Assembly: GCA_937912225.1 (NCBI GenBank)
Contig: CALDOJ010000034.1
Location: 556 to 64,555 of the forward strand
Origin: Candidatus Woesearchaeota archaeon
GTDB lineage: Archaea > Nanobdellota > Nanobdellia > Woesearchaeales > GCA-2686295
Direction: 5' to 3'
Length of the DNA stretch: 64,000 bases
Each line of letters starts with the position of its first letter. Position 1 is the first letter of the stretch. The notes under the pieces are model-generated. The model was given only the letters and a program-made list of their open reading frames with translations. It made no database searches and was not told the DNA's origin. Positions 2,006-59,519 of the stretch are shown piece after piece. The translations under genes and the position numbers were made by a program.

Positions 2006-2066
2006 TTCAAATCCTCTTTTCCGTTGACTTTAAATCAACGAAGTTTAAGTTAGGTAGTACCAAGGC

Positions 2067-2108
2067 ATATATAAAGCTTTCGATTTCGCAAATCATTTAT
2101 TAACTACT
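2067..2108 (-). promoter_or_regulatory. Putative archaeal-type promoter of grpE-dnaK: the AGTAGTTA box, a BRE-like cgaaag and the TATA box tttatata, read on the minus strand.
   Basis: The minus strand reads cagtagttaataaatgatttgcgaaatcgaaagctttatatat about 60-100 nt upstream of the grpE start. The same arrangement recurs at 35648 and 46812. Confidence 0.4.
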
Positions 2109-2162
2109 GTGCAGGAGTTAAAAAAAGAAACATTTATATATTAGAAGTATTAATAATAAAAT

Positions 2163-2834
2163 ATGAATTGGAAGAATATTCTTTTAACAAGCGTATTAAT
2201 AGCAACTACTCTATATAATTGCAAGCCACATACAGAATTAAAAATTAGTAACAACACTGGTAAAAAAACATTCATTTCTCAAGAAGAAGGAGAACAGGAT
2301 CTTCAAATATTAGCGCAATACAAAAATAAAGAAGATGCATGGATATATTTTGATGGAATGTGGGCTGATATTGGAACCAACATAACAAACAACAGTGTTA
2401 GCAAATCTAATAGTACAATTCTTAATGCAATCCCTGAAGATGTCTTGTCATCCATAACAATTCATGAATACCACACACATCCAGGTAACGAATTCATTAA
2501 CAATACCCCACCAGGACCAAGCGATTATAAATCTTTAGCTGAAAATAAAAAATTTCTAAGAGCACAGCGAAACGTTAATGTTGTTGGAAATGTAGTTACA
2601 GCAACAGGTGTTTGGACTTACGACTTAACTCGACATTTAACATATAAATTAACAAGTCCACAAGAACAATTACAAAAAAAAGTATCATCACAATTATCAG
2701 AACAAACATTCTACTTGGCAGGAAGAGTTTTCACAAATCCTGATTTAAACAAAGAAGAACAAATTCAATCATTTATAGACTCTATGAAAGTTGAAGGCGT
2801 ATTAATGCAATATAAACCGTTTGAAAAAAACTAA
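2163..2834 (+). CDS. Hypothetical secreted protein or lipoprotein with an HTHPG motif that resembles JAB/MPN
   Basis: N-terminal hydrophobic signal with Cys at residue 20 (LYNC), which looks like a lipobox. IHEYHTHPGNE...PSD resembles the JAMM H-x-H-P...S..D metal-binding motif, but the spacing is atypical. RBS and start are plausible. Confidence 0.5.
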   Translation: MNWKNILLTSVLIATTLYNCKPHTELKISNNTGKKTFISQEEGEQDLQILAQYKNKEDAWIYFDGMWADIGTNITNNSVSKSNSTILNAIPEDVLSSITIHEYHTHPGNEFINNTPPGPSDYKSLAENKKFLRAQRNVNVVGNVVTATGVWTYDLTRHLTYKLTSPQEQLQKKVSSQLSEQTFYLAGRVFTNPDLNKEEQIQSFIDSMKVEGVLMQYKPFEKN

Positions 2835-2839: not shown

Positions 2840-3655
2840 TTATTCTTTAACAAAAACATTCAAGTCTTCTAACTCCATAGAATAAGGTATTAAATAATCC
2901 GTTCCTTTAGAAGAACCAGCCCAATTATAACCGTCATATGATAATCTCTCAGCAACCTCCATAAAAGGATTTGCAGGAGTGCCTATAACTATTGCACCAA
3001 AATTTAAAGGAATTGAAGGATAACGGTTTTCTAAAAAATCCAACACATCATGACCTCCCTTCATCAACAAAGTGTTTGTTGCACAATTATATTCAGGAAT
3101 AATCTCAGGTTTCTCAGCATCACCAGTAACTCGAAATGGCTTCTGAGATTCGTCAATTATATCTTGTGATTTTAAAGTACTAACTATATCGTTAATTCGC
3201 GCATCAGAGTAAGTATCTACATCCCACCACATATTAGGAACTTCTTCTTCTTGATAAAAACCAATATCCTGAAAAACAACTTTGTCAAAAATTCTTAACC
3301 AATAAAAATCAACTCCTGAAAAAGGATAATAACATTCGCCCTTAACAGATTCTGGCAGAAAAGAAGCAATGTTATCCAATACTCGAACAGCTTCGTTCAT
3401 TGCAGGATAACCTTCTTTTGCTTCTAAAGCTTCAAGTTCTCTATATCCATTCACATAACCAACCCATTCAACAGCAACAGCATTATGCATTCTAGAAATA
3501 AAATCTTGATCTTCAAGAGCTTTTTTTAAGTTACCATCATATTCGTTTCCAAGCATGTTTGTTGCAGTACTTAATGCTCGTTTATGAGCTGCTTTTATAC
3601 TCGATTCAAGGTTTATACGCTCAGCAGATTTAGTCATTGTGATTGTTAGGGCCAT
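2840..3655 (-). CDS. Hypothetical protein (271 aa)
   Basis: Long ORF with non-repetitive composition. Its start overlaps the stop of the upstream gene 3630..4442 by 26 nt in a different frame, which suggests a coupled pair or a frameshift. Confidence 0.55.
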   Translation of the reverse strand: MALTITMTKSAERINLESSIKAAHKRALSTATNMLGNEYDGNLKKALEDQDFISRMHNAVAVEWVGYVNGYRELEALEAKEGYPAMNEAVRVLDNIASFLPESVKGECYYPFSGVDFYWLRIFDKVVFQDIGFYQEEEVPNMWWDVDTYSDARINDIVSTLKSQDIIDESQKPFRVTGDAEKPEIIPEYNCATNTLLMKGGHDVLDFLENRYPSIPLNFGAIVIGTPANPFMEVAERLSYDGYNWAGSSKGTDYLIPYSMELEDLNVFVKE

Positions 3656-4442
3656 TTAGATATTTCTCTTTAAAAGCTTTAATTGGATGAATTGCTACAC
3701 TTGCTTTAATCGGATGAGCTAACCAATACAAAGCACCTCCAAGTTGTTTTACAGGAGTATAAATTTCTTCTTTACCACCAAACTCTTCAAGATGATCTTT
3801 GACATAAGTTTTGCCAGTTTTCTTTACATGATCAAGTTCAATTCTAGAAATATTATAACCTTCTCTTAAATCAGCTTTAAACTGTTGAAATGCATTCCTA
3901 GTATATATACTGTCTCTTTGAAGTTCAATAGGAGCGCCATACCATTGTTTAATTGCATTGCTTAATCCAGTAGTTAAAAAAACTGATTCTGAGCTTGGAT
4001 TAATTATATCTTCCATTAAATCTCTTATTGTTTGATTATGTTCGCCACACATACAGTTTATAACCGCTTTGTCAAGATCATTTTCTTCAGACATTAATTT
4101 AAACTGTCTTATTAATCGACCATTATCAAGCGTTAAAGGAAACTCTCTTCGATAATCATCTATTTTGTCTATGATTGATAATCCCATTTTATCACGCGCT
4201 TTTACATGTTCTAGAATTTCATTTGGAGAATAAAACTGTTTACCAGATTGTATTTTATCAGGAATTTGACCTAGTTTACCATAAGTATCAGAAAAGTTCC
4301 TAGTTTTTTTTCTTTCGTAACTATCAACCCATTCAGAAAGTCCGTCTTCAATTATTTGCTGTATTGCAGGATTATGAGAAGTTAAATCAGTTTCTCTAAT
4401 TAATTCAACAAGTTCGTCAAAAGTATGTTTTTCAGTCATCAA
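3630..4442 (-). CDS. Hypothetical protein (270 aa)
   Basis: Long ORF with a CMCGEH motif and no recognisable family. First gene of a two-gene minus-strand unit. Confidence 0.55.
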   Translation of the reverse strand: MMTEKHTFDELVELIRETDLTSHNPAIQQIIEDGLSEWVDSYERKKTRNFSDTYGKLGQIPDKIQSGKQFYSPNEILEHVKARDKMGLSIIDKIDDYRREFPLTLDNGRLIRQFKLMSEENDLDKAVINCMCGEHNQTIRDLMEDIINPSSESVFLTTGLSNAIKQWYGAPIELQRDSIYTRNAFQQFKADLREGYNISRIELDHVKKTGKTYVKDHLEEFGGKEEIYTPVKQLGGALYWLAHPIKASVAIHPIKAFKEKYLNGPNNHND

Positions 4443-4590
4443 GCATCACCTATTACTCGAAGGAATACAGAATAATTTATAAAACTATTTCTTAATAACC
4501 ACTTAAAAGTTAATAATAATTAAATCAACATAAATCATTTTAATAAAACACAAATTCAAAACCTTTTTAAATTATTGTCAATACAACACT

Positions 4591-5280
4591 ATGATGAGTC
4601 TGGAAAATCGAAATCAAAATATTCTTTTAACAGTAGATATCATTGTTTTCTCAGTTATGCATGATAAATTAAATGTTCTTCTTATCAAAAGAAAAAACCC
4701 TCCTTTTCAAGGAGAATACGCTTTACCAGGTGGTTTTGTGAAAGATGATGAAGATTTACAAGAAGCTGCTAGACGAGAGTTAGTTGAAGAAACTAATGTT
4801 AAAAACATTTTCATGAAAAAATTGAATGTTTATGGTAAAGTTGATAGAGACCCTAGAGGTAGAGTTGTAAGTGCAGCTTACATTGCTTTAATTGACCATG
4901 AAAAGTTTCAATTAAAAGCTACAACTGATGCTTTAAAAGCAGAATGGATTCCATATGAGCACATTAAAGTTTTAGCTTTTGATCATAAAAAAATTTTATC
5001 TGAAGCATTAAAAGAATTAAGATATGATGTTCAAACAACAAATATTGCATCCCAATTATTACCTAATAGATTTACACTCACAGAACTTCAAAGATTGTAT
5101 GAAACCATATTAAACCAAGAACTTGATAAAAGAAATTTCAGGAAAAAAATAAAAACTTTCGAGATTCTAAAACCATTGAATGAAACTAAGATGGAAGGCG
5201 CGCATAGACCTGCTCAATTATTTTCATTTAAAGAAAAAGATTATCAACCATTAAAGGATAAAATTAAAGTATTTCTTTAA
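4591..5280 (+). CDS. Nudix-related transcriptional regulator (NrtR-like): an N-terminal Nudix domain with a C-terminal winged helix
   Basis: Nudix box GGFVKDDEDLQEAARRELVEETNV. The C-terminal ~80 aa (FTLTELQRLYETILNQELDKRNFRKK) has the wHTH pattern of NrtR/ADP-ribose-responsive regulators. It sits next to the nadBAC operon. Confidence 0.65.
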   Translation: MMSLENRNQNILLTVDIIVFSVMHDKLNVLLIKRKNPPFQGEYALPGGFVKDDEDLQEAARRELVEETNVKNIFMKKLNVYGKVDRDPRGRVVSAAYIALIDHEKFQLKATTDALKAEWIPYEHIKVLAFDHKKILSEALKELRYDVQTTNIASQLLPNRFTLTELQRLYETILNQELDKRNFRKKIKTFEILKPLNETKMEGAHRPAQLFSFKEKDYQPLKDKIKVFL

Positions 5281-6754: not shown

Positions 6755-6816
6755 TATTAGTTAGAAATCAATCTTTAAAAATTTTTAGAAAGAATAGACA
6801 TCCAATCTATATACTT

Positions 6817-6925
6817 AAAAACCACAATATTTATATATGGTAAGTGTTTAACTAACACTAAGATAATAAAACAACACTCATTTTTGCAAAAGACTAAGTG
6901 TAAAAAAAACAATAAGGCAATCAAA
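6817..6925 (+). repeat. Copy A of a ~105-nt conserved intergenic element. It has a TATA-like box followed by two inverted-repeat pairs built from AGTGT/ACACT half-sites.
   Basis: aaaaccacaatatttatatatggtaagtgtttaactaacactaagataataaaacaacactcatttttgcaaaagactaagtgtaaaa. It is near-identical to 16805-16912. It lies upstream of the operon that contains nadBAC. Confidence 0.75.
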
Positions 6926-6976
6926 AGCAATGCTTTTGGGTCTGGAAATAAAAAATAAAATTTCAAGGTGAAACAA

Positions 6977-7784: not shown

Positions 7785-9407
7785 TTGAAACAAATTGAAT
7801 TTTTAATCATTGGAAGTGGAATTGCAGGCCTTCGAGCAGCAATCGAACTAAGCAAGCAAGGAAAGCAATCAACAATCATAACCAAAACAACTGTTGAAGA
7901 CTCAAATACAATGTATGCGCAAGGAGGAATTGCAGGAGTAGATCCTGTAAGAGTTGCAAATAACGAAGATAGTTTTGAATCACATGCGAATGATACAATT
8001 AACGCTGGTAAAGGATTAGTTAATGAAACAGTTGCACACAACTTTGCAAATCAAGCTTATGAAACAATTGATTTCTTAATGCAAGAAGGAGTTGAATTTA
8101 CTAAAAATGGCAAAAGTTATCCTTATGAATTACATCAAGAAGGAGGCCATGAACATCCTAGAATTTATTGCGTTGGAGACTTTACAGGTAAGGCAATTGA
8201 AGAAACACTTGTAGAAGTTGTAAAAGCAGATCCGAACATCACAATCCTAGAACAACACTCAGCAATCAACTTAATTACAAATGAAAAGTGCTTAGGCGCT
8301 TACGTCTTAAATAGGGAAACTGAAGAAATCGTCACAATCCAAGCGAAGAAAACTTTCTTAGCAACAGGAGGGGCAGGAAGGGTTTTTCAATACACAAGTA
8401 ACCCTCAAAATGCAACTGGCGATGGAATTGCAATGGCTTACAAAGCAGGTGCAAGAATCGCTAACATGGAATTCGTCCAATTCCACCCTAGCGTACTCTA
8501 CGAAGAAAACCCTAAAGACCCTTCAGAAAAAAGATTCTTATTAACTGAGGCTTTAAGAGGAGCAAAAATGGGTGGAATCTTAACAAATGATAAAGAATCA
8601 TTAGAAGATTTCGTGCTTAATTATAACCAAGAAGGATCACATTCAACAAGAGATATCGTTGCAAGAGCAATCGATACTGAAATGAAAACAAAAGGACTAA
8701 AGAATGTTTGGCTTAATGTAACGCCAGTTGTTACTGGCAAAAGCGAAGAATACATTAAAGAACATTTTCCAAAAATTTATGAGAAATGCTTAGAAAAAGG
8801 TATTGATATAACTAAAGAAGCAGCTCCAGTTGTTCCTGCAGCACATTATACTTGCGGAGGAGTCTTAGTTAATGAACATGGAGAAACAGACATTCCTAAT
8901 TTATATGCAATAGGTGAAGTTTCATACACAGGACTAATGGGTGCAAATAGACTTGCTTCAAACTCATTAACAGAAGGAGCACTTTATGGAAGACTTGCTG
9001 TAGAACACGCATTAGAAACAGCAGATAATGAAGAATATCAAACAATTGCAGATTGGGAAACTAGTCAAATTAAAGAAAACATTGATGTTGCAACTAGAAA
9101 CCAGTTTTGGGATACAACAAGACAAATAATGAGCAATATGTGTGGAATTGACAGAACTGCAGAGCGATTAAGTCTAGCATCAACTACAATTGATGCATTG
9201 GCTGACGCCGCAAATGAATTTTACTGGAATCACTTTCCAACAGCTGAAATCATTGAATTAAGAAATATAACACAAGTTGCAAAACTAATAGTTGATTCAG
9301 CAAAACAACGAAAAGAAAGCAGGGGCGGACATTACCGTTCAGACTTTCCAGAAATGAATGAAGATTACAATACAATAACAATAATTCAAAAAGAATTATT
9401 AAACTAA
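7785..9407 (+). CDS. nadB: L-aspartate oxidase
   Basis: TTG start after RBS gaggtga. FAD-binding GSGIAGL, and family motifs of the NadB/succinate dehydrogenase flavoprotein family (HYTCGG, RGGHYRSDFP). Confidence 0.9.
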   Translation: MKQIEFLIIGSGIAGLRAAIELSKQGKQSTIITKTTVEDSNTMYAQGGIAGVDPVRVANNEDSFESHANDTINAGKGLVNETVAHNFANQAYETIDFLMQEGVEFTKNGKSYPYELHQEGGHEHPRIYCVGDFTGKAIEETLVEVVKADPNITILEQHSAINLITNEKCLGAYVLNRETEEIVTIQAKKTFLATGGAGRVFQYTSNPQNATGDGIAMAYKAGARIANMEFVQFHPSVLYEENPKDPSEKRFLLTEALRGAKMGGILTNDKESLEDFVLNYNQEGSHSTRDIVARAIDTEMKTKGLKNVWLNVTPVVTGKSEEYIKEHFPKIYEKCLEKGIDITKEAAPVVPAAHYTCGGVLVNEHGETDIPNLYAIGEVSYTGLMGANRLASNSLTEGALYGRLAVEHALETADNEEYQTIADWETSQIKENIDVATRNQFWDTTRQIMSNMCGIDRTAERLSLASTTIDALADAANEFYWNHFPTAEIIELRNITQVAKLIVDSAKQRKESRGGHYRSDFPEMNEDYNTITIIQKELLN

Positions 9408-9456
9408 AGTCTCGGAGAGATTTAAGTAACAATTGTACAGAAGGAGGCATAAAAAA

Positions 9457-10365
9457 ATGGATGAGAAACAATTAGTAAAAGAAATTAAAAGGTTAAAAAA
9501 AGAAAAAAACGCAATTATTCTAGTGCATAATTATCAAAGACCAGAAATCTACCAAGTAGCAGATTTACTAGGAGATTCTTTAGAATTAGCAAAGAAAGCA
9601 GCTGAAACTGATAAAGACACAATAGTTTTTTGTGGAGTTCATTTTATGGCTGAAACAGCCAAATTATTGAATCCTTCAAAGAAAGTTTTACTGCCTGAAA
9701 TCAACGCAGGATGTCCAATGGCAGACATGGTAAAACCTGAAGATGTAGCTAGAATGAGAAAGGAACATCCAAAAGCAGTTGTTGCTTGCTACATTAATAC
9801 TACTGCTGAAACAAAAGCATTATGTGATATCTGTGTAACTTCAGCAAATGCAGTAGACGTAATTAACTCACTTGATGCAGATGAAGTAATTTTTGTTCCA
9901 GACATGAACTTGGGAAATTATGTTCAAAAGTTTACAAAGAAAAAAATGATTCCTTTCCAAGGATATTGTCACGTACACCATTCATTTGATGAAGAAAAAT
10001 TAAAACTTGCAAAAGAAAAATATCCTAAAGCAGTTGTAATAGCTCATCCTGAATGTCCTGAATTTATTTTAAAACATGCAGACGAAATTAGGTCCACTTC
10101 AGGCATGATTACTGCAGCAAGAGATAGTGACGCTCAAGAATTTTTAATTGCAACAGAACTTGGAATGATTGAAAGATTAAAACTTGAAGTTCCTGAAAAA
10201 ACCTTTTATTCAGCAGGAGCTATAAGAGTTTGTCCTAACATGAAAAAGACTTTTTTAGAATCAGTCTACAAAGCATTAAGAGATGATCAATACGAGATTG
10301 AAGTTCCAGAAGCAATTGCAACAAAAGCAGTTGAATGTGTTAACAGAATGATGAAGGTGAAATAA
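9457..10365 (+). CDS. nadA: Quinolinate synthase A
   Basis: RBS gaaggagg before MDEKQ. The ORF in the supplied track starts earlier, at 9433. NadA motifs and Cys ligands are present: FCGVHFMAE, AGCPMA, VFVPDMNLG, AHPEC. Confidence 0.9.
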   Translation: MDEKQLVKEIKRLKKEKNAIILVHNYQRPEIYQVADLLGDSLELAKKAAETDKDTIVFCGVHFMAETAKLLNPSKKVLLPEINAGCPMADMVKPEDVARMRKEHPKAVVACYINTTAETKALCDICVTSANAVDVINSLDADEVIFVPDMNLGNYVQKFTKKKMIPFQGYCHVHHSFDEEKLKLAKEKYPKAVVIAHPECPEFILKHADEIRSTSGMITAARDSDAQEFLIATELGMIERLKLEVPEKTFYSAGAIRVCPNMKKTFLESVYKALRDDQYEIEVPEAIATKAVECVNRMMKVK

Positions 10366-10366
10366 A

Positions 10367-11344
10367 ATGTTTGAACAAACAGCAGGAATGAGAATAGATA
10401 TGACCAATCAAGTTTATGATCAAAGTTGGCAATTAGAATTAAATGTTTCTGCACCAAAAAAGCCATTTGTTGATTATACAACCAGAGTTACTAACTTCAT
10501 CAATACAATGTTAGAAAATGATATTGGTGAAGGCGACTTAACAACTAAACTTGTTACAAATCCAAATCAGGAAGCTACAGCAATTATTAGCACTGAAGAA
10601 AATGGCGTTGTTGCAGGAATTGAAGAAGTAGTTAATTACTATGAAACTCATGGTGTTAAAGCCGTTCCTAAAGCAGAAGACGGAGATGTAGTTGAAAAAA
10701 ATCAAGAACTAATTTATCTTGAAGGTAAAGCACAATCTTTGTTAACACTTGAGCGAGTTGGGTTAAATATTATTAGACGAATGAGTGGCATTGCAACTTT
10801 AACAAGAGAATATGTTAATTTGTTAGAACCTTATAATACTCAGGTTGCAGGAACTAGAAAGACTAACTCTGAAGAATTATTGGAGAAAAAAGCAATCTAT
10901 CATGGAGGAGGATTAACTCATCGTTTAGGTTTAGACCAGCACATTATGATTAAGGATTGTCATTTAGATTTAATTGCTGCAGAAGGATATGAGCATCCAA
11001 TTACTGAAGCAGTAAACAGAGCTGAAGAAGTTCATTATAACACAATTGAAGTCGAGGTTAAAAATATTGGTGAAGCTGTTGAAGCTGCAAAAGCCATTTA
11101 TTCAGGGTTTGATATTGATAAACGATATGTTATAATGCTTGATAATATGCAACCAATTGAAATTACAGATACTCTTGAAGCACTTGGTAATTTGACCAGA
11201 GGAATTATCTTTGAAGCATCTGGCGGAATTAATCTTGATACTGCAGAAAGTTATGCTAAAACTGGAGTAGATGTTGTTTCTACCAGTCAAATTACTGAAC
11301 GAGCTATGCCTTTGAATATACATCAGAAGATAAAAATTAAATAA
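10367..11344 (+). CDS. nadC: Nicotinate-nucleotide pyrophosphorylase [carboxylating] (quinolinate phosphoribosyltransferase), with a ~40-aa N-terminal extension or a later true start
   Basis: LENDIGEGDLTT, AGTRKT, IMLDNM are classic NadC motifs. Its start overlaps the nadA stop. Confidence 0.9.
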   Translation: MFEQTAGMRIDMTNQVYDQSWQLELNVSAPKKPFVDYTTRVTNFINTMLENDIGEGDLTTKLVTNPNQEATAIISTEENGVVAGIEEVVNYYETHGVKAVPKAEDGDVVEKNQELIYLEGKAQSLLTLERVGLNIIRRMSGIATLTREYVNLLEPYNTQVAGTRKTNSEELLEKKAIYHGGGLTHRLGLDQHIMIKDCHLDLIAAEGYEHPITEAVNRAEEVHYNTIEVEVKNIGEAVEAAKAIYSGFDIDKRYVIMLDNMQPIEITDTLEALGNLTRGIIFEASGGINLDTAESYAKTGVDVVSTSQITERAMPLNIHQKIKIK

Positions 11345-12000: not shown

Positions 12001-12303
12001 TTAAATTTTGTTGTTTGGTTTCACCTTTAATTTGTTCTTTTTTAAAGTCCCAAAAGCTTTGTTTTTGACTGCCTTTTTACCAAGTTCTGATAATTTATTA
12101 ATTTCTCCATCATCAAGCCACATGCCTTGACAAAATGGACAAACATCAATCACTATTTTATTTTTTTCTATTTTATCCAATTTTGAAGAACATCTTGGAC
12201 AGGTTAAATCATTATCATCCGATATTAATAATCTTTTCCCTAAGAAAATCCAAGATAGTTTTTGTTTGAGTTTACTTGTACCTGTTTCTTTTATTTCTGA
12301 CAT
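12001..12303 (-). CDS. Zinc-ribbon protein (zf-TFIIB-like, CPxC...CxxCxGxWxDxGE)
   Basis: CPRCSSKL...CPFCQGMWLDDGEINKL. The real start is probably MSEIKETG at 12303. The longer ORF in the track reads through the GC-rich Gly-codon repeat of the upstream gene. Confidence 0.65.
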   Translation of the reverse strand: MSEIKETGTSKLKQKLSWIFLGKRLLISDDNDLTCPRCSSKLDKIEKNKIVIDVCPFCQGMWLDDGEINKLSELGKKAVKNKAFGTLKKNKLKVKPNNKI

Positions 12304-12304
12304 T

Positions 12305-13138
12305 TTACCATCCTCCTCCGGCTCCGCCGCCGCCAAAACCACCGCCACCAAAGCCACCAAAGCTTCCACCGCCACCAAATCCTCCTCGTCCGCCTCTTAA
12401 CATTGAGGACGCAAGCATAGCAGCAAAGAAAAGATTTCCATTATCTTTTCTTGTTCCGTGTTTTCCTTGACCTTTTGCAGCAATTGATCTTATCATTGAC
12501 ATTATAAAAAATACTATTAAAAATATTAATCCAGGACTAATACCTGGTTGTGTTCTTGGTGTTGGAATTGCAACTTTATTTGTTAATTCGACTTGTAATT
12601 CATTTGCAATTTCATTTATTGCAGCCATACTACCTTCAAAATAAGATTCTTCTTTAAAATACGGAACTAATAATTCTCGCCCAATCCTACCAACTTTTGC
12701 ATCGTTAAAAATAGGCTCTAAACCTCTTCCAACATTAAACCAGTATGCTCTGTCTTCAACTGCAATTAATAATAATAAACCGTTGTTTGTTTCTGAATTA
12801 CCTAAGTTTTCATTAGAAATTTCTTGAGCAAACATTTGAATATCATAACCATCTAATGATTTGATAGTTACAATTGAAACTTCAGCTATTTTTGAATTAT
12901 AAATATTTAATAATGAACTGCTCAACAGTTCTTCTTGTGCATCAGAAAAGATATTCCCATAATCATTCACTAAATAAGTTATTTTTATTTCTGAAGGAGA
13001 TTCGGCAATAGTTAAAGGTATAACTAATAATAAAATTGTTAATAGAACTAAATATTTTGTTCTCATAAAGAAGAGTGCAGAAAGCATAATATAAAAAACT
13101 ATTGAATATTGTTTTTTTTTCAAAAAGTTATTAAACAA
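12305..13138 (-). CDS. TPM-domain (YgcG-like) membrane protein with a Gly-rich C-terminal tail
   Basis: Signal peptide (the probable true start is MRTKYLVLL near 13063), a TPM-like domain, a TM helix and a GGGGSFGGFGGGGFGGGGAGGGW tail typical of this family. It co-occurs with LemA, as is usual. Confidence 0.7.
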   Translation of the reverse strand: MFNNFLKKKQYSIVFYIMLSALFFMRTKYLVLLTILLLVIPLTIAESPSEIKITYLVNDYGNIFSDAQEELLSSSLLNIYNSKIAEVSIVTIKSLDGYDIQMFAQEISNENLGNSETNNGLLLLIAVEDRAYWFNVGRGLEPIFNDAKVGRIGRELLVPYFKEESYFEGSMAAINEIANELQVELTNKVAIPTPRTQPGISPGLIFLIVFFIMSMIRSIAAKGQGKHGTRKDNGNLFFAAMLASSMLRGGRGGFGGGGSFGGFGGGGFGGGGAGGGW

Positions 13139-13158
13139 ACTCGCGTCACTTTTTAGTT

Positions 13159-15258
13159 ATGAGTTCAGATTTAGATTACATAACAGTTCTTGAAGCTTTA
13201 CAAAGCATTCCTTTTAATGTTGGAAAGAAATTGTTATCAGATGTTTTAAGAGGAGATGATAAGAACGAGTCTGTTAAAAAGAATTTTTTGAATCGTTTAG
13301 ATACTTTTGGAACTCTCGCGTATGAACCTCATGAAATCAATGCCATAGTTGATAGATTAATATTAAATGGTTTAATTAAATCTGTTTCTTTGCCTGGAAA
13401 ATCTTTTTGGAAGGTTTTAGAGCTTACTCCTAAAGGCAGAGAAGAAATTCTTAATCCTACTTTACATAAGAAAAAGCTTTCAAATCATGTTAAACATTAT
13501 GAAACTAATATTACTGATAAAGATAGAACAGTATTTTCTGCTCTTGAGTCATTTTTGTCTAAATTTAATGATGGTCAGAAAAAAGCAATTATTAGTTCTA
13601 ATAAACACATTTTGTGTATTGCAGGTGCAGGTTCAGGAAAAACTACTGTTTTAACAAAGAGAATCGAGTTTTTAACAAAGTATAAATCAGTTAATCCTTC
13701 AAAAGTTTTAGCAATTACTTTTACTAGAAAAGCTCGTCAAGAAATGATGGCTCGTATTGGAAAGTTTGATCCTTTAGGAAAAATTAGAGTTGAAACTTTT
13801 AATTCGTTCTGTGAAAAAATATTGCAAAAACATAATGATTTGGTTTATGGCAAAAAAGTTCGAGTATTAGCCTATAGAGAAAAATTTTCTGTTATTAATA
13901 AAGCACTTGCTTCATTAAATACTAATATGAAACGAGCTGTTGCTTCATACTTTACAACTCAGCAAAGAAGTGGCCGGTCTGATGAACAATTAGCAAGTAT
14001 TTTCATGAACGATTGTTTTTTTATTAGAGATTATTTTAAATTTAAGAATTTGCCTTTATCTTCAAAATTATTTGAAGGTGCAGATTATAAAAACAAACCA
14101 AGCGCAGAATTAGTTTATCATGTTTCTAAATATATTGAGGAATTTATGAATGAAGAAGGATTGCGAGATTTTGCAGATCAATTATTAGATACTATGAATC
14201 TGTTTAGAGTCCATCCTGAGTTAATTCCAAAGTTCGAACATATTTTAATTGATGAATACCAAGATGTTAATTCTACTCAAATAGAATTTGTTGATATGTT
14301 AAATGTTTCAAATGTTTTTGCAGTTGGTGACCCTCGTCAATCAATCTTTGGATGGAGAGGCTCAGACATTAAATATATTTTAGGTTTTGAAGAAAAGTAT
14401 GAAGGTTGTGAAGTTGTATCTTTAGTTATGAACTATCGTTCTACAAAAGCAATTGTTGACTTAATGAATTCTGCAATTAAATCTTTAGGAATGAATGATT
14501 TAGAAAGCAGTTTTGAAGGTGAACGAGAATTGTCGTTGTTAAAATTTAGTTCTGAATATTCTGAATTTAATCATGTTGTTGAAGAAATTAAAAAATCAAC
14601 TGTTCCTAGAAAAGAAATATTTGTTTTAGCTAGAACCAATAAACAATTAAATGAATTATCCAATATGTTAAAGAATAATTTGATTGATCATGTTGTTAAA
14701 AGCGATGAGATGAAGTCTTCAATTCTTGCTGGAGCAAATCAAGTAACTCTTGCCACAATTCATGCAATTAAAGGTTTAGAAGCAGACTTAGTTTATGTTG
14801 TTGGTTGTAATGGTTCAAACTTTCCATGTAAAGGAAGCGAACATCCAATAATCGATCTTGTTAAAGTTGATGAATATGATAAAGAAGAAGAGGAAAAAAG
14901 ATTGTTTTATGTTGCAATTTCACGAGCTCGAAAGAAATTATGTTTATCTTATTCTGGAACTAGAGCTACAATGTTTATTACTGAAGAAATGCTGAAAATG
15001 TTAAAAGAAGAAAACAAAGTGATGACTGAAGACGAAGAAGGTTCTACTAAAGGGTTAGAAAGAAGATTAAAGGACTGGCGGTTGATGAAAGCAAAAGAGT
15101 TAGGAGTACCTGCTTACACAATCATGCACGACAAAACGATTATAGACATTCGAATGAAATTACCTCAGAGTTTACGAGAGTTAGAAGAAGTTTATGGCTT
15201 TGGACCAACTAAAATCATGAGGTATGGTGAAGAAGTATTGGGGCTTATTATTGGTTGA
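13159..15258 (+). CDS. UvrD/PcrA-family superfamily-1 DNA helicase with a C-terminal HRDC domain
   Basis: Walker A AGAGSGKTT, DEYQD motif, the VATIHAIKGLE and YVAISRAR helicase motifs, and an HRDC-like C-terminal domain (LGVPAYTIMHDKTIIDI...GFGPTKIMRYGEEVL). Confidence 0.85.
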   Translation: MSSDLDYITVLEALQSIPFNVGKKLLSDVLRGDDKNESVKKNFLNRLDTFGTLAYEPHEINAIVDRLILNGLIKSVSLPGKSFWKVLELTPKGREEILNPTLHKKKLSNHVKHYETNITDKDRTVFSALESFLSKFNDGQKKAIISSNKHILCIAGAGSGKTTVLTKRIEFLTKYKSVNPSKVLAITFTRKARQEMMARIGKFDPLGKIRVETFNSFCEKILQKHNDLVYGKKVRVLAYREKFSVINKALASLNTNMKRAVASYFTTQQRSGRSDEQLASIFMNDCFFIRDYFKFKNLPLSSKLFEGADYKNKPSAELVYHVSKYIEEFMNEEGLRDFADQLLDTMNLFRVHPELIPKFEHILIDEYQDVNSTQIEFVDMLNVSNVFAVGDPRQSIFGWRGSDIKYILGFEEKYEGCEVVSLVMNYRSTKAIVDLMNSAIKSLGMNDLESSFEGERELSLLKFSSEYSEFNHVVEEIKKSTVPRKEIFVLARTNKQLNELSNMLKNNLIDHVVKSDEMKSSILAGANQVTLATIHAIKGLEADLVYVVGCNGSNFPCKGSEHPIIDLVKVDEYDKEEEEKRLFYVAISRARKKLCLSYSGTRATMFITEEMLKMLKEENKVMTEDEEGSTKGLERRLKDWRLMKAKELGVPAYTIMHDKTIIDIRMKLPQSLRELEEVYGFGPTKIMRYGEEVLGLIIG

Positions 15259-15325: not shown

Positions 15326-16273
15326 CTATTTTTGATACTTTTTTCTTATCTCATCAACTGTTTTGATTGTATTTGGTTGTGCCATCAAGAATACTATATA
15401 AGAATATGCCATTGAGTGATATATTACTGCAAATTCTTTTTCATTACATTTGTTTGAAAGTTTTGGTCCTTCATCAAAGTATATTTTATTCCATAAGTGA
15501 TTAATTTCTGTAAATTCTTTAGTATTACTTTTGTGATACATTTTATAAAATAATTCATATAATTTTCCTGATTTTTCATATAGCGAAATTACTTCTTTGT
15601 TTATTTTTTCATCAGATTTTATTTTGTTTAACTTTTGATAAAGAAAATAATTATCATAGTTTGTTATAACTAGTCTTTCTAATAATAAATCTGCAAAAAC
15701 CTCTTCTATTCTTGAAATTAATGCTTGTTTATGTATTGCTCTTCTACAAAACAAAGAGAATCTTCTAGTATCAGATATTAATTGGTCCAGTAGTTTTTGA
15801 TTATCAAATTTATTCTTTATTATATCTTCTAATACAACTGTGTGAGTATACTTTATTATGTTTAATAATCGATCCATGATGGTTTTTACTTCTTTAATTG
15901 TTGGGTGTGCTGTTTCTGCAATTTTGCAATAGTTATCTTTTTGTTTAACAATTTCAAAACCATTCAGATTAGATACTATTTCTTGTATTATATTCATTGC
16001 ATCTTTATCTTCAAAAGTTATTTCTAAGATATCATCGCCTCGAAGATAATGATTTTCTATATTTATCCTGTAATAATGATCTATTCCTTTTTTTAAGTGT
16101 AAAGAAACTTTTTTTGATTCAGATATATTATCAGTTGTAATTTTTAATCCTTCTTCGTCTTCTAAAATTTCAACTTCATCAGATCCTTCAAGACTATGAT
16201 CTCTAATCCATTTAATTGGGAGAGTAACTGTGTATGCAGTTTTTTGTCGGGTAATTTTTCGTTTCATAGACAA
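15326..16273 (-). CDS. Hypothetical protein, possibly an AbrB-type N-terminal domain or a PhoU-like regulator
   Basis: 315 aa. The N-terminus YTVTLPIKWIRDHSL...EVEI resembles a swapped-hairpin AbrB/SpoVT domain. The rest is helical. Family unverified. Confidence 0.45.
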   Translation of the reverse strand: MSMKRKITRQKTAYTVTLPIKWIRDHSLEGSDEVEILEDEEGLKITTDNISESKKVSLHLKKGIDHYYRINIENHYLRGDDILEITFEDKDAMNIIQEIVSNLNGFEIVKQKDNYCKIAETAHPTIKEVKTIMDRLLNIIKYTHTVVLEDIIKNKFDNQKLLDQLISDTRRFSLFCRRAIHKQALISRIEEVFADLLLERLVITNYDNYFLYQKLNKIKSDEKINKEVISLYEKSGKLYELFYKMYHKSNTKEFTEINHLWNKIYFDEGPKLSNKCNEKEFAVIYHSMAYSYIVFLMAQPNTIKTVDEIRKKYQK

Positions 16274-16372
16274 GTATAAGTTTAACTCATTTATAAAGTT
16301 TTCCCGGGATATATAGGAAATATAATGGAATCATATATATTATTATGAATAACCACTATATTGTGATTAAAA

Positions 16373-16747
16373 ATGAAAGAAAAATTAACAAAAACATTAA
16401 CTAAAGGAGATCTTGAAGTAAATTGGGGTTTCAAAGAAAAATTATTTGTCGGATCTTTTTTTACACCTCAGATTATGTCTTTTTTAACAGGCGTAGGAGT
16501 TGCACTCAATGAAGAAAATGGTCCTGTAGGATTAGAAAATATGGTTTACTTATCAGTTCCTGTCATAGGTGGAATTGTAGCTGCACTTGGAACAGGTGTT
16601 GTTGCAATACCGTTAGGATATGCTTCGCATTCCTCTCCTTCAGATATAATAAAACCAATGGCTTTTATGGGCGGTGTTTATACTGCAACATCTTGTGTCG
16701 CATTAGGACTAGGGTACGGAATAGTTAAAGGAATTAAATATTTGTGA
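16373..16747 (+). CDS. Hypothetical small membrane protein
   Basis: 124 aa with several Gly-rich hydrophobic helices. Confidence 0.45.
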   Translation: MKEKLTKTLTKGDLEVNWGFKEKLFVGSFFTPQIMSFLTGVGVALNEENGPVGLENMVYLSVPVIGGIVAALGTGVVAIPLGYASHSSPSDIIKPMAFMGGVYTATSCVALGLGYGIVKGIKYL

Positions 16748-16804
16748 AAAAAATAGTTTAGTTCATTCTGAGCATTCAATCTCGTTCTACCACACTTATA
16801 TACT

Positions 16805-16912
16805 ACAAAACCACAATCTTTATATAGACTAAGTGTTTAACTAACACTAAGATAATAAACGCAACACTTATTCTTACGAAAGACTAAGTGTAAAACAAAC
16901 AATAACTAAACA
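16805..16912 (+). repeat. Copy B of the ~105-nt conserved intergenic element. It lies upstream of the radical SAM-nadE operon.
   Basis: aaaaccacaatctttatatagactaagtgtttaactaacactaagataataaacgcaacacttattcttacgaaagactaagtgtaaaac. It is about 85-90% identical to 6817-6925, with the same half-sites at the same spacing. Confidence 0.75.
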
Positions 16913-16918
16913 AAGAAA

Positions 16919-17032
16919 ATGACAAACATAACAACAAACGAAGAACTAAGAGACCTAGGAACTGTTCATGGTAAAGAAGGCAACTTCGCAGTTCTAATGG
17001 TGAACCAAGAGGTACAATTCGTACAAATATAG
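16919..17032 (+). CDS. Small upstream ORF (37 aa). Its stop codon directly abuts the GTG start of the radical SAM gene. It may be a leader peptide, a coupling ORF or a precursor peptide.
   Basis: Translates to MTNITTNEELRDLGTVHGKEGNFAVLMVNQEVQFVQI. The last 6 nt read TAG GTG: the stop at 17030-17032, then the GTG start at 17033-17035. The ORF is not in the supplied track because it is shorter than 60 aa. Confidence 0.3.
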   Translation: MTNITTNEELRDLGTVHGKEGNFAVLMVNQEVQFVQI

Positions 17033-17917
17033 GTGATTAAAACGAGAATACAAACATATAGCGTAATTGCAGGAAGCACAGCATGCAATGCTAAATGCCC
17101 ATACTGTGTTTCAAGAATGACACCAAAAGTTGGACTCGACTATAAAATCAGCGAGCCAAACTGGCGAAACTTTGAGAAAGGATGCGAATATGCAAAAGAC
17201 AGTGGAGTCTCAACAGTTTTAATCACAGGTAAAGGCGAGCCAACATTATTCCCTGATCAAATATCAGATTATTTAACTCATTTAGAGAATTACAAGTTCC
17301 CATTCATCGAAATGCAAACAAACGGTATAACATTAGCCAAACAACAAGAGAAAATGAAACCATACCTAAAAGACTGGTATGACAAGGGACTTACAACATT
17401 TGCAATCTCAATGGTTCATTACGATTCAAAGAAGAACAAAGAAATCTACGAACCTACTGCAAAAGAACACTACGAACTTGAAGATTTAATCAAAAACCTA
17501 CATGATGAAGGATTCTCAGTAAGATTAACAAATGTAATGGTTAAAGATTACATAGACAATCTTGAAGGAGTTTTAGATTTAATCAACTTTGCAAAAGAAA
17601 ACAAAGTCGAACAATTAACAGTAAGGTCAGTTGAATCACCAAACGAAGCAGAAGATGCAAGCGTAAAAGAATGGGCTGACGAAAGAAAAATAGAACAAGA
17701 AAAAGTTGACGAAATTAGAGATTTCTTAGACGAAAACGGAACCAGACTTCTAGAATTAGTTCATGGAGCAATTGTTTATGATTACGAAGGACAAAATATC
17801 TGTGTTAGCAACTGTCTAACAATGGATCCAAACGAAGAGCGAATCAGACAATTAATTTTCTTCCCAGACGGACATTTAAGATATGACTGGGCACATGAGG
17901 GGGCAATAATACTATGA
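17033..17917 (+). CDS. Radical SAM domain protein
   Basis: CNAKCPYC is the CX3CX2C motif, near the N-terminus. GKGEPTLFP is a glycine-rich SAM motif. GTG start. The 3' end overlaps the nadE start (ATGA). Confidence 0.75.
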   Translation: MIKTRIQTYSVIAGSTACNAKCPYCVSRMTPKVGLDYKISEPNWRNFEKGCEYAKDSGVSTVLITGKGEPTLFPDQISDYLTHLENYKFPFIEMQTNGITLAKQQEKMKPYLKDWYDKGLTTFAISMVHYDSKKNKEIYEPTAKEHYELEDLIKNLHDEGFSVRLTNVMVKDYIDNLEGVLDLINFAKENKVEQLTVRSVESPNEAEDASVKEWADERKIEQEKVDEIRDFLDENGTRLLELVHGAIVYDYEGQNICVSNCLTMDPNEERIRQLIFFPDGHLRYDWAHEGAIIL

Positions 17918-18804
17918 GACGAATAAAATTAGCAAGAATGAACCCAGAACAAGTTGCCAATGAAATTGGAGATTTCATCATTAACTACACATTCGGCTCA
18001 AAAGGAGGAGTAATGGGTTTGTCAGGAGGCGTTGATTCAACAACTGTTGCAGCATTAACAAAAAAAGCTTTTGACAGATATAATCAACACAACAAAAACC
18101 AACTAGAACTTGTTGGATACATGCTTCCTTCAGGAGTTAATAATAAAGAAGATACTAAAGACGGAGTTTATGTTGCAAACAAATTAGGCATCAGATATGA
18201 AATACAAAACATCGATGCAATCGTTAATTCTTACAAAACTACTAATCCCAAAACACTAGAAAATAATTTTCACAAAGGAAATCTAATGTCTGAAGTTCGA
18301 GCTTCAATTCTACACAGAAAAGCGGCAACTGAAGGAAAATCAGTAATTGGAACTGGTAATAAAGATGAAGATTTTGGAATTGGTTATTACACTTTATTTG
18401 GAGATGGTGCAGTTCATATGAGCCCAATCGGTAACTTACCAAAAAGATTAGTTAGAGAAATGGCAGCATACCTGGGATTTACAGAATTAGCTAACAGAAT
18501 TCCAACTGCAGGTCTAGAACCAGATCAAACTGACTTCAAAGATTTAGGTTACAGCTACGACGTTGTAGAACTAATCACTGAAGGAATAAATCAAGGATTC
18601 GAATATAACCAATTAATCAATCATGAACAAGTAATTCCATTAGTAAACAAAGAACTGGAGGCATACGAAAAAATGTACGAAACAAGAAAATTTAACTCTG
18701 TAGAAGACGTTGTAAATGACATATACAACAGACACGATTTAGCAAACATCAAAGCAAATATCATCAACCCACCAATTGCAGAAATAACATTAGAATACAG
18801 GTAA
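17914..18804 (+). CDS. nadE: NH3-dependent NAD+ synthetase
   Basis: PP-loop GLSGGVDSTTVAAL and NadE-type downstream motifs. Confidence 0.9.
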   Translation: MRRIKLARMNPEQVANEIGDFIINYTFGSKGGVMGLSGGVDSTTVAALTKKAFDRYNQHNKNQLELVGYMLPSGVNNKEDTKDGVYVANKLGIRYEIQNIDAIVNSYKTTNPKTLENNFHKGNLMSEVRASILHRKAATEGKSVIGTGNKDEDFGIGYYTLFGDGAVHMSPIGNLPKRLVREMAAYLGFTELANRIPTAGLEPDQTDFKDLGYSYDVVELITEGINQGFEYNQLINHEQVIPLVNKELEAYEKMYETRKFNSVEDVVNDIYNRHDLANIKANIINPPIAEITLEYR

Positions 18805-18868
18805 ATAAAATGCGACCCCAAACAAAAATAGAATTTTTGAAAATTCATAATTTCAAAAAGGTGAAACC

Positions 18869-19306: not shown

Positions 19307-19307
19307 A

Positions 19308-26678: not shown

Positions 26679-26688
26679 GTTTATCTAC

Positions 26689-28431: not shown

Positions 28432-28433
28432 TT

Positions 28434-29567: not shown

Positions 29568-29595
29568 TTTTGCACCTCTTTAAAAATAAATTTAA

Positions 29596-29626: not shown

Positions 29627-29666
29627 TCAAAACTAAAAATTTCTGAGCAAAAAATAAAAAATAACT

Positions 29667-30896: not shown

Positions 30897-30963
30897 TTTA
30901 TTCCTCCTAATATACTCTTTTTTTTATAAAATATCGAAAATATACTCTTTTTTATCACTGCGA

Positions 30964-30990
30964 AGTAGTTATTATATATAAATGTTTCTA
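30964..30990 (-). promoter_or_regulatory. Putative promoter of the 29667..30896 unit, with a TATA box, a BRE-like box and an inverted AGTAGTTA 8-mer
   Basis: The minus strand reads agaaacatttatatataataactacttcg. Two 14-bp direct repeats (aaaaaagagtatat) sit in the downstream 5' leader at about 30905-30960. Confidence 0.35.
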
Positions 30991-35647: not shown

Positions 35648-35676
35648 TATATAAATGTTTCGATTTGTAACTACTA
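35648..35676 (-). promoter_or_regulatory. Putative promoter of the AAA+/vWA unit: the AGTAGTTA box, a BRE-like cgaaac and the TATA box tttatata
   Basis: The minus strand reads cttaatagtagttacaaatcgaaacatttatatac, about 115 nt upstream of the ATG at 35532. Confidence 0.4.
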
Positions 35677-35698
35677 TTAAGTGATAATAAATTGGGTC

Positions 35699-37070: not shown

Positions 37071-37850
37071 CTACCTATTTTTACCACTCTTTAGTGGTTT
37101 ATTCAAATATTTTTGCATATGATTGAAAGGATCGTCATAACAAAGACAACCAAGAGGAGTTAAAAAATCAGAGAATGTTTGTGCATAAGCAACCAAATCA
37201 CTTATTAAATCTTTATGGTCTTGAAAATTTTGATAAACAACTTCTCTGCCAACAACTCTACCTTTGTTAAGTTCAGATTTATTAATACAATGATCTTTAA
37301 TTAACCAATCAATTGTTTCAGTATCATTAGGATCAAAAATAGCACCAAAATCAATTTGATTAATTTTCAAATCACCAGTTAATAAAACATTAACAGCTCG
37401 CCTATCTTTCAAAGCTAAAGTGTTAACAAGCTCCATTGAATAACCAAAACTATATGCAACTTCCAATTCTTTACCTTCAGGAACATAAAATTTTTTGCCA
37501 GGAAGACCTTCCATCATGACGAGATTTTCATTATGAAGGCCATCCCAAGTAATAAAATTGTGATTCGCACCAGCCAAAATATTATCCAAAGCCATACCAA
37601 GAGCTTCTCTAGAAGCACCTTCCAAAGAAGTTTTAACATAAACATCTTTCTTAGAACCGTTCTTAAGAACAGCTTCATACTTATCAACAGAATAACCAGT
37701 TTTAATTTCAGAAACGTGTTTGAACTTCACAGGTTTTTCACCAAACAAAACACCAGATAATTGTTTAATTCTTCGCGTACGATAATTAAAATGACTAGGT
37801 GCAGGCGGAAGACGAACACGACCAAGAAGTTTATCCAAATCAACATTCAT
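37071..37850 (-). CDS. PI3/PI4-kinase-like atypical kinase-fold protein, group A paralog 6
   Basis: DVYVK Lys, alphaC Glu (SREALGM), catalytic loop ALKDRRAVNVLL and IDFGAIF. Confidence 0.7.
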   Translation of the reverse strand: MNVDLDKLLGRVRLPPAPSHFNYRTRRIKQLSGVLFGEKPVKFKHVSEIKTGYSVDKYEAVLKNGSKKDVYVKTSLEGASREALGMALDNILAGANHNFITWDGLHNENLVMMEGLPGKKFYVPEGKELEVAYSFGYSMELVNTLALKDRRAVNVLLTGDLKINQIDFGAIFDPNDTETIDWLIKDHCINKSELNKGRVVGREVVYQNFQDHKDLISDLVAYAQTFSDFLTPLGCLCYDDPFNHMQKYLNKPLKSGKNR

Positions 37851-46811: not shown

Positions 46812-46840
46812 TATTTAAATGTTTCGTTTTTTAACTACTT
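46812..46840 (-). promoter_or_regulatory. Putative promoter of the 12-gene array: the AGTAGTTA box, a BRE-like cgaaac and the TATA-like box tttaaata
   Basis: The minus strand reads gttactataaagtagttaaaaaacgaaacatttaaatag, 40-70 nt upstream of the ATG at 46773. Confidence 0.4.
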
Positions 46841-46919
46841 TATAGTAACAACATTAAATACATTTAAATATAACCAACCATTACCAAATAAAAAAACCAA
46901 TATTTAAGGTGATGAAATT

Positions 46920-59424: not shown

Positions 59425-59519
59425 TATAAAAGAAGAATCAGGAATAACATTTAAATGTTACTATTTGGTGGTGGTTATTTTCCACAATATTTAAATAGTT
59501 AATTTGGTTTTCTAACAAA

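Follow-up and report, generated by a model that had tools for sequence, protein, structure and literature searches.

A position-constrained inverted repeat as a candidate operator in Woesearchaeota, shared with promoters of a conserved AAA/vWA gene cluster

A 20-bp inverted repeat recurs at the promoters of a 64,000-nucleotide (nt) stretch of a Candidatus Woesearchaeota contig, hereafter the window, and at promoters of a conserved AAA/vWA gene cluster in related archaea. The 8-mer AGTAGTTA is the consensus half-site of this repeat, which reads TWAYYACT-N4-AGTRRTWA (8-4-8 layout) or, written as halves, TAACTACT-N4-AGTAGTTA. On sequence grounds, the 20-mer is very probably a transcription-factor binding site, and analogy with TrmBL1 and the Thermococcales glycolytic motif (TGM) makes it probable that it serves as a position-dependent operator for a dimeric winged-helix regulator. 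The operator is new in its sequence; its kind, the position-dependent palindromic archaeal operator, is already known. To our knowledge, gene regulation is almost wholly uncharted in the DPANN archaea, an uncultured group with small genomes and few regulators. A search of the literature on Woesearchaeota promoter motifs found nothing relevant.

The initial annotation had reported AGTAGTTA upstream of BRE-like (transcription factor B recognition element) and TATA boxes in three promoters, and inverted and downstream of the TATA box in a fourth. The three copies do lie on the minus strand at 2101-2108, 35668-35675 and 46832-46839, the inverted one at 30964-30971(+), 3 nt past aGAAAC-A-TTTATATA (30975-30988), and the boxes are present where they had been placed at all four promoters. 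Nine copies of the 8-mer occur in the window (2.46 expected; 0 of 100 shuffles reach nine), four of them intergenic and the remaining five coding. This count does not pass multiple testing: some 8-mer with at least two G/C appears in at least four regions in 48% of intergenic dinucleotide shuffles. It was, therefore, dropped as evidence when taken alone. The carrying observation is the symmetry around the intergenic copies, all four of which have an inverted partner half-site 4 nt off, within the top 0.05-0.2% of all 8-mers; the partner half-sites of the five coding copies are random. Written as partner, spacer, and half, the four original sites are TAACTCCT-gcac-AGTAGTTA, TTATCACT-taat-AGTAGTTA, TTGTTACT-ataa-AGTAGTTA, and TTATCACT-gcga-AGTAGTTA, with the 4-nt spacers varying and the halves kept.

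A half-site matrix was built from these four sites, and the whole window was scanned for pairs with a 4-nt spacer. The next-ranked matches after the training sites were 37081-37100 (TTACCACTctttAGTGGTTT), 16350-16369 (TAACCACTatatTGTGATTA), 4496-4515 (TAACCACTtaaaAGTTAATA), and 59458-59477 (TTACTATTtggtGGTGGTTA), and scores fall sharply past these top eight. Three of the newly recovered sites are intergenic and the other falls within the final codons of a gene, immediately 5' of a TATA box. All of the top eight matches are thus found at promoters, in a window with an intergenic share of 5%, and shuffled windows give 0.93 matches at the same threshold. Spacers of 2, 3, 5 or 8 nt with the same half-site pair yielded new matches in coding DNA only. 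When all gapped palindromes of 3- and 4-mers were listed without bias, ACT-N4-AGT ranked first among the G/C-containing ones with intergenic enrichment (6 of 14 copies intergenic). The 20-mer is, therefore, an inverted repeat with a fixed spacer and a restriction to promoters, as is generic for the operators of dimeric factors. The earlier view that the 8-mer occurs in only four promoters holds for exact AGTAGTTA and fails for the palindrome, given the four degenerate copies just listed. The sites are gathered in the table, together with their core promoters and with counterparts from relatives.

Table. Operator sites, core promoters and related elements in the window and in loci of relatives (nt, nucleotides; aa, amino acids; positions in the window count from its first letter)
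Feature	Locus	Position	Strand and reading	Placement	Gene or remark
Operator site 1	window	2101..2120	+ reads TAACTACTgtgcAGGAGTTA, - reads TAACTCCTgcacAGTAGTTA		8-mer and inverted partner matching 7/8 bases
BRE/TATA core GAAACATTTATATA	window	2127..2140	+	TATA start 12 nt from operator edge	promoter of 223-aa gene
grpE promoter cgaaat-cgaaag-c-TTTATATA	window	2068..2088	-	TATA 2068-2075; 25 nt from operator edge	grpE
Operator site 7	window	4496..4515	- reads TATTAACTtttaAGTGGTTA	12 nt 5' of TTTATAAA (4476-4483)	outside training set
Operator site 6	window	16350..16369	TAACCACTatatTGTGATTA	9 nt past ATATATAT box, 3 nt before ATG	outside training set
Operator site 4	window	30952..30971	gene orientation TAACTACTtcgcAGTGATAA	starts 3 nt 3' of TATA	409-aa gene 29667-30896 (-)
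BRE/TATA GAAAC-A-TTTATATA	window	30975..30988	-		promoter of 409-aa gene
Operator site 2	window	35668..35687	- reads TTATCACTtaatAGTAGTTA	12 nt 5' of TATA	764-aa AAA ATPase gene 33238-35532
BRE/TATA CGAAAC-A-TTTATATA	window	35648..35662	-	caaat spacer between AGTAGTTA and BRE	AAA gene promoter
Operator site 5	window	37081..37100	- reads AAACCACTaaagAGTGGTAA	11 nt 5' of TTTATATA (37062-37069)	outside training set
Operator site 3	window	46832..46851	- reads TTGTTACTataaAGTAGTTA	12 nt to - TATA, 11 nt to + TATA	symmetric between divergent promoters
BRE/TATA CGAAAC-A-TTTAAATA	window	46812..46826	-	aaaaa spacer before BRE	first kinase-like array gene 45649-46773
TATA box TTTAAATA	window	46863..46870	+		divergent gene 46920-47792
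Operator site 8	window	59458..59477	TTACTATTtggtGGTGGTTA	12 nt 5' of TTTAAATA (59490-59497)	promoter of gene 59520-60059 (+); outside training set
Element	L073		TAATTACTggggAGTGGTTA	11 nt 5' of TATA	AAA gene
Element	L073		TAACTACTaaagGGTAACAA	3' of TATA	409-aa orthologue
Element	L074		TTACTACTttttAATAGTCA	12 nt 5' of TATA	409-aa orthologue
Element	L075		TTACTACTaaagAGTTATAA	3 nt 3' of TATA	AAA gene
Palindrome	L078			1-2 nt 3' of TATA	both AAA and 409-aa promoters

The position of the element relative to the core promoter is strongly constrained. Distances to the nearest TATA-like box were taken for 20 sites (eight from the window and 12 from relatives). At 15 of the 20, hereafter class 1, a TATA-like box stands 11-13 nt from one edge of the element, leaving about 5 nt to the BRE, and the other five (class 2) begin 1-3 nt 3' of the TATA box. 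The fixed position initially proposed for the upstream copies is confirmed for two of the three (5 nt to the BRE and 12 nt to the TATA box) and is departed from at grpE, where 25 nt separate the copy from the TATA box. An archaeal core promoter, CGAAAC-A-TTTAWATA or a close variant, accompanies all sites, 20-115 nt 5' of start codons (start sites being predicted). Sites 2 and 3 have the common layout AGTAGTTA-N5-CGAAAC-A-TTTA(T/A)ATA, and site 1, read toward the plus strand as AGGAGTTA-aaaaa-aGAAAC-A-TTTATATA, also runs half-site-N5-BRE-TATA. The core GAAACATTTAWATA is common to the four promoters with an exact 8-mer and is absent from all remaining intergenic DNA of the window.

Strain variants of the window, the aquatic-metagenome contigs L001 to L006 (including one 105.7-kb ENA contig, ERZ964652 k127_112655), are 99.7-100% identical to it and uninformative for conservation; the extra 9 kb of L001 is without any further site. 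Otherwise, the nearest proteins to those of the window come from Woesearchaeota, Pacearchaeota, and Nanoarchaeota metagenome-assembled genomes, at about 50% identity or less; when metagenome contigs were searched with the AAA protein of 764 aa, the sole match was a 1.1-kb piece from the same organism. A seven-gene core (AAA-764, 269 aa, vWA-like 476 aa, 409 aa coiled coil, 377 aa, AAA-580, and 461 aa) occupies 25293-35532 in the window and is kept in the Woesearchaeota/Pacearchaeota loci L073, L074, L075, L077, L078, L079, and L080. It consists of two sub-operons, [764-269-476] and [409-377-580-461], which vary in order and in orientation and are divergent in L079. The cluster proteins of the element-bearing relatives are 42-50% identical to those of the window.

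Matches of at least 14 bits number seven in 106 kb of cluster-bearing loci versus three in 994 kb of bacterial control DNA, an enrichment of about 22-fold. All seven are at promoters, and five of them are at cluster or block-heading promoters, namely those of the AAA gene (L073, L075, L078), of the 409-aa orthologue (L073), and at L073 70-89. Weaker copies are present at the promoters of the 409-aa orthologue in L074, L078, and L080. As in the window, the element stands 3' of the TATA box at this promoter in L073, L078, and L080. L078 additionally has two near-perfect sites at unrelated promoters, TAACTACTttatAGTAGTAA, which lies 12 nt 5' of a Peptidase_C11 operon's TATA box, and a symmetric site between divergent genes. 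When a matrix is made from the relatives' sites alone, AGTAGTTA again emerges as the consensus half-site. Since changes have saturated neutral intergenic DNA where proteins are 45-50% identical, the conservation of the element implies selection. The palindrome of which the 8-mer is one half, its constrained TATA distance, and its retention at orthologous promoters of relatives with about 50% identity all bear out the initial idea of a candidate transcription-factor site.

TrmB-family proteins offer the closest comparison. Their motifs are TACT-N3-AGTA, TATCAC-N5-GTGATA, and TACT-N7-8-GAGTA, and they activate from sites 5' and repress from sites 3' of the core promoter (PMC4158304, PMC4706686). 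From 3' of the TATA box, TrmBL1/Tgr and Halobacterium TrmB repress by blocking the recruitment of RNA polymerase, and a single site can activate one divergent promoter while repressing the other (PMC4706686, PMC4158304). The TGM, read by TrmBL1 in P. furiosus and by Tgr in T. kodakarensis, resembles the 20-mer as a palindrome of about 19-20 bp with CAC/ACT...AGT/GTG half-sites, and two window sites read TTATCACT-N4-AGT..., with AGTGATAA in reverse. Both positions known for the TGM, 5' of BRE/TATA and 3' of TATA, are also used here (11-13 nt and 1-3 nt, respectively). Nevertheless, the TGM consensus TATCAC-N5-GTGATA (PMC4706686) is not found, and TATCAC-N6-GTGATA in two half-sites, or TACT-N4-AGTA, occurs in its place. 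The consensus half-site is AGTAGTTA rather than GTGATA, and the host is a DPANN archaeon (Woesearchaeota). Instead of genes for the uptake of sugars, for glycolysis, and for gluconeogenesis, the targets are AAA/vWA, PI3/PI4-kinase-like, and small membrane protein genes, as well as the L078 Peptidase_C11 operon. By analogy, the 20-mer would work like a TGM/TrmB-type operator but outside the TGM regulon, since consensus, spacing, and targets differ.

The TrmB operators themselves (TACT-N3-AGTA in the Pyrococcus/Thermococcus TM operon and TACT-N7-8-GAGTA in Halobacterium salinarum) share the TACT/AGTA inverted-repeat core. They are read by a dimeric winged-helix protein, with the sign of regulation set by the position relative to the promoter (PMC4158304), and the same is proposed here. 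The 20-mer differs from them in its 4-nt spacer and 8-nt half-sites, with neither a sugar-binding TrmB nor sugar genes nearby. A further parallel is TFB-RF1 (PF1088)/Ptr2, as TFB-RF1 activates from just 5' of the BRE by recruiting transcription factor B (TFB) (PMC5937170). Class-1 sites end about 5 nt 5' of the BRE, at a rigid distance, as expected if a dimer contacts TFB or the TATA-binding protein (TBP). However, the TFB-RF1 motif is TCTG-N5-CAGA and is found at weak BREs, whereas the best sites here adjoin consensus-like CGAAAC BREs, and the 20-mer is also used 3' of TATA.

On this basis, the 20-bp operator would most likely be read as double-stranded DNA by a dimeric winged-helix factor. 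A dimeric reader is suggested because of the dyad symmetry, and reading of the double strand because hairpins are poor and most sites lie 5' of TATA. At class-1 sites, the bound factor would recruit or stabilize TFB/TBP and so activate transcription, in keeping with TrmBL1/Tgr, Halobacterium TrmB, and TFB-RF1. Class-2 elements cover the stretch up to the transcription start; at these and at BRE-overlapping sites, the factor would block RNA polymerase or TFB, leading to repression. A single operator between divergent genes could serve both promoters. What the sequences show is the palindrome, its confinement to promoters, its two spacing classes, and its retention at orthologous promoters; that a protein binds it, which protein this is, and in which direction it regulates are inferred. 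The conserved Woesearchaeota seven-gene AAA/vWA cluster would be the centre of the regulon, which in the window would also take in a PI3/PI4-kinase-like array and several genes of unknown function, some coding for membrane or secreted proteins.

The likeliest candidate for the cognate factor, proposed tentatively from sequence comparison, is a clade-wide TrmB-family protein resembling TrmBL2. It is widespread in Woesearchaeota/Nanoarchaeota (at least about 8000 homologues, the best 120 of which share at least 58% identity), and its closest solved relative is PDB 5bpd, matched over the full length with E = 1e-17. In L082 and L084, the promoter of its own gene has an operator-like 20-mer at the class-1 position before AGAAACATTTAAATA, within the top 0.005% and 0.018% of background, respectively. 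TrmBL2 (PF0496/TK0471), a chromatin protein and global repressor, has the same length as the candidate, aligns with it over the full length, and the candidate is likewise highly conserved across the clade (PMC4877046). TrmBL2 differs in binding both coding and intergenic DNA with little specificity, in contrast to the discrete, position-constrained operator found here, and the link between candidate and operator comes from two promoters only. A yet wider reading, in which the TrmBL2-like protein reads TAACTACT-N4-AGTAGTTA throughout the clade and switches the MoxR-AAA/vWA cluster, together with surface and membrane proteins, on or off according to position, is speculative and, in our judgement, rather doubtful. 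The TrmBL2-like gene adjoins cdc6/orc1 and PolD genes in L083 (9784-13123) and L084 (8200-10801). In L084, a 590-nt gap with ATT and ATA repeats separates these genes, and because of these repeats, the gene is probably beside a replication origin.

Several observations weigh against the proposed operator and its candidate reader. The promoter of the TrmBL2-like gene in L083 is without the element, neither the window nor L001 has a TrmB- or TrmBL2-like gene, the spacing of the motif is 1 nt off that of known TrmB motifs, and Thermococcales TrmBL2 binds DNA with little sequence specificity (PMC4877046). Within the window, the enrichment of ACT-N4-AGT is borderline after Bonferroni correction (about 0.13), and of the eight promoter assignments, that of site 6 (16350-16369) is the most uncertain. 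Because the window-trained matrix was used to find the relatives' sites, the two data sets partly depend on each other. Among the relatives, the high-GC cluster-bearing locus L079 is without the element, as are the Woesearchaeota housekeeping loci L081, L083, and L084 (about 20 kb each), and L082 has two moderate sites; the operator system is, therefore, not universal in the clade. Finally, the AAA gene has a class-1 site in the window and in L073 but a class-2 site in L075 and L078, which implies opposite regulation of orthologues if position fixes the sign.

One alternative, the reading of the initial annotation, is a stress or heat-shock regulator site co-regulating grpE-dnaK and the novel cluster. 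One copy does lie 25 nt 5' of the grpE TATA box, a lone operator between divergent promoters could affect both, and stress is often linked to proteins such as the MoxR-like AAA ATPases and the vWA protein of the cluster. However, a gap of 25 nt between TATA box and operator occurs at none of the other 19 sites, and the class-1 spacing of site 1 (12 nt) faces the 223-aa gene. A genome contig search with GrpE found no close relative, the best hits being at 51% and 47% identity (Woesearchaeota) and the rest Firmicutes-like, and these loci served as negative controls. When the orthologous dnaK-operon promoters were compared, the grpE promoters of two Woesearchaeota relatives, L007 and L012, proved to lack the palindrome. 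The window and L012 (47% GrpE identity) share other elements 3' of the grpE TATA box, TTGGTAYTACCTA and GTTGA-N7-TCAAC. No further site was found in 9 kb carrying dnaK, dnaJ, and their neighbours. As a candidate regulator site at a chaperone promoter, the 20-mer recalls two archaeal heat-shock operators, that of Phr (TTTA / TGGTAA / AAAA, lying across the start site) and HSR1 (CTAAC-N5-GTTAG), but it matches neither (PMC9133787). At grpE, it is also located 25 nt 5' of TATA instead of spanning the start site, and related grpE promoters lack it. In addition, four of the eight window sites belong to unrelated genes whose function is unknown, several coding for membrane proteins, so the element is not confined to the cluster and grpE. 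A shared stress regulator is thus unlikely, and the link between the cluster and heat shock is not supported. The divergent operator could act also on grpE, which would be at most a secondary target.

It is also unlikely that the element marks a promoter class read by a TFB/TBP paralogue, or nucleating a chromatin protein such as TrmBL2. Such a role would fit the density of the sites (eight in 64 kb, or about one third of intergenic promoter regions), the very rigid distance of 11-13 nt to TATA, the GAAACATTTAWATA core restricted to the four exact-8-mer promoters, and the chromatin protein TrmBL2 as the closest solved relative of the candidate (PMC4877046). Unlike a core-promoter extension, though, the element also occurs 3' of TATA and in both orientations. 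It is missing from the relatives' housekeeping regions (RNA polymerase, ribosomal proteins, EF-2, and replication genes), and no second TFB/TBP gene was seen in the window, only a TFIIB-type zinc-ribbon open reading frame (ORF) at 12001-12378. Duplication of a promoter cassette, with no dedicated binding protein, would be conceivable in a cluster with many tandem paralogues, and sites 2 and 3 are indeed alike over about 45 nt, including an identical CGAAACATTTA. It appears decidedly improbable, as the 4-nt spacers and flanks differ while the half-sites are kept, site 4 is on the other side of its TATA box, four further sites lie outside the cluster by unrelated genes, and the element recurs at 45-50% protein identity, where neutral DNA is saturated. 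Chance recurrence in AT-rich intergenic DNA could draw on the 48% of shuffles with an equally recurrent 8-mer and on the Bonferroni value of about 0.13. It is strongly disfavoured by the partner half-sites in the top 0.2%, the finding of new sites at promoters only, the constrained spacing in 15 of 20, and the enrichment of about 22-fold in relatives. The least probable explanation is an RNA or DNA hairpin, for example a terminator or processing site. Sites 2, 4, and 5 lie between same-strand genes, and site 5 folds at -7.3 kcal/mol (z = -4.3), but the other seven of the eight sites fold at -0.3 to -3.3 kcal/mol, five of them no better than shuffles (z -0.33 to +0.12). The halves approach the consensus and show no pairing co-variation (TTATCACT / AGTAGTTA leaves two mismatches), and most sites lie 5' of TATA in divergent regions, where they would not be transcribed.

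If the clade-wide regulon outlined above were true, it would be the first defined pair of factor and operator, with its regulon, in the uncultured, host-dependent Woesearchaeota. It would also give a sequence-specific role to a member of a family known elsewhere as a non-specific chromatin protein. An operator of rigid geometry kept at about 50% protein identity makes a regulon readable directly from metagenome-assembled genomes. It also provides evidence for dedicated control of a conserved AAA/vWA cluster of unknown function, with the TrmBL2-like protein as a testable candidate factor, and corrects the tempting, unsupported placing of this cluster in a heat-shock regulon.

Regarding the individual sites, site 1 is located between the divergent promoters of grpE (-) and of the 223-aa gene 2163-2834 (+). 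The product of the latter belongs to no Pfam family and has a signal-peptide-like N-terminus, and its mRNA is probably leaderless because the ATG stands only 22 nt past the TATA box. On the grpE side, AGTAGTTA is 12 nt from the first BRE-like box (cgaaat) and 18 nt from the second (cgaaag). The site 7 promoter drives the minus-strand operon 3630-4442 / 2840-3655. At site 6, the gene codes for a 124-aa membrane protein (16373-16747, +), the position of the element is of the repressor type, and the divergent gene (15326-16273) has an AbrB domain. Site 5 is within the last codons of gene 37071-37850, and its promoter drives a 66-aa ORF (36837-37037) and gene 35699-36835. Site 8 is also 2 nt from a minus-strand TATA box, that of the operon 59104-59424 / winged helix-turn-helix (wHTH) gene 58505-59035, and overlaps the corresponding BRE. 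The genes flanking the sites had no homologue in the relatives' loci.

The kinase-like array headed by the site 3 promoter (37071-46773, -) comprises at least nine paralogous genes of 250-496 aa with a GLxDRHxxN ... IDFG motif and weak Pfam matches to PI3_PI4_kinase (E = 9e-7, 1e-3). It contains three paralogous genes of 174-201 aa (41733-43352). No such array was seen in the loci of relatives, where only the seven-gene AAA/vWA core is present. The direct repeat aaaaaagagtatatt occurs twice between site 4 and the 409-aa gene's start codon (30900-30950, -). As read by eye, a 31-codon ORF (35525-35620, -) starts about 27 nt past the TATA box of the AAA promoter, with its stop overlapping the AAA start (ATGcTTGA); its translation could be leaderless and coupled to that of the AAA gene downstream. 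The core GAAACATTTA(T/A)ATA at 2127-2140, 30975-30988, 35648-35661, and 46812-46825 also follows the operator-like sites of the L082 and L084 TrmBL2-like genes, and may mark a distinct, strong promoter class. A scan of IMG/VR gave 44 matches to the perfect palindrome, about the number due to chance by a rough estimate, and none to the composite of palindrome and TATA box, hence no viral link.

The grpE promoters of the window and L012 have a common layout, TTTATATA-N4-TTGGTA(C/T)TACCTA (with a GGTA-N-TACC palindrome) followed by GTTGA-N7-TCAAC (2051-2063 and 2023-2039 (-) in the window; about 4740-4790 in L012). These shared elements 3' of TATA are a better candidate for a chaperone-specific operator, or else a candidate leader element. 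The TGGTA core of TTGGTAYTACCTA recalls the TGGTAA box of the Phr site (PMC9133787), and its position is of the repressor type. Just left of the window, L001 has an OLD-family ATPase/TOPRIM nuclease gene (12543-14123; AAA_15, AAA_21, OLD-like_TOPRIM) between dnaK and dnaJ.

Other proteins were considered as readers of the 20-mer. AbrB/MazE-domain proteins and an HTH_20 protein of L078 were rejected, as they show no homology between genomes. The membrane-anchored MarR/DUF7343 wHTH protein encoded behind site 8 was demoted, since its own promoter is without the palindrome in L081 and L082 and its gene travels with heavy-metal ATPase and thiol genes. It is well conserved (58-69% identity in the best 120 of 392 Woesearchaeota/Nanoarchaeota homologues), far above GrpE or the AAA protein. 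With two N-terminal membrane helices, a C-x6-C loop between them, and neighbouring genes for a heavy-metal P-type ATPase, HMA, DsbD-like, glutaredoxin or thioredoxin proteins, it may sense metals or redox state while tethered to the membrane. NrtR was rejected as well: the nadBAC and nadE/nadM operons are preceded by a different palindrome, AGTGTT-N5-AACACT, and the 20-mer is absent there. The NrtR gene (4591-5280) combines Nudix and NrtR-type winged-helix domains. A common block of about 100 nt occurs at 6755-6967 and 16748-17032, with a TATA box, then the perfect palindrome AGTGTT-taact-AACACT, then gactaagtgtaaaa. The former precedes an operon running into nadB/nadA/nadC (7785-11344) and the latter the operon 17033-19922 with radical-SAM, nadE, NUDIX, and nucleotidyltransferase genes, an arrangement resembling an NrtR regulon for NAD synthesis in an archaeon.

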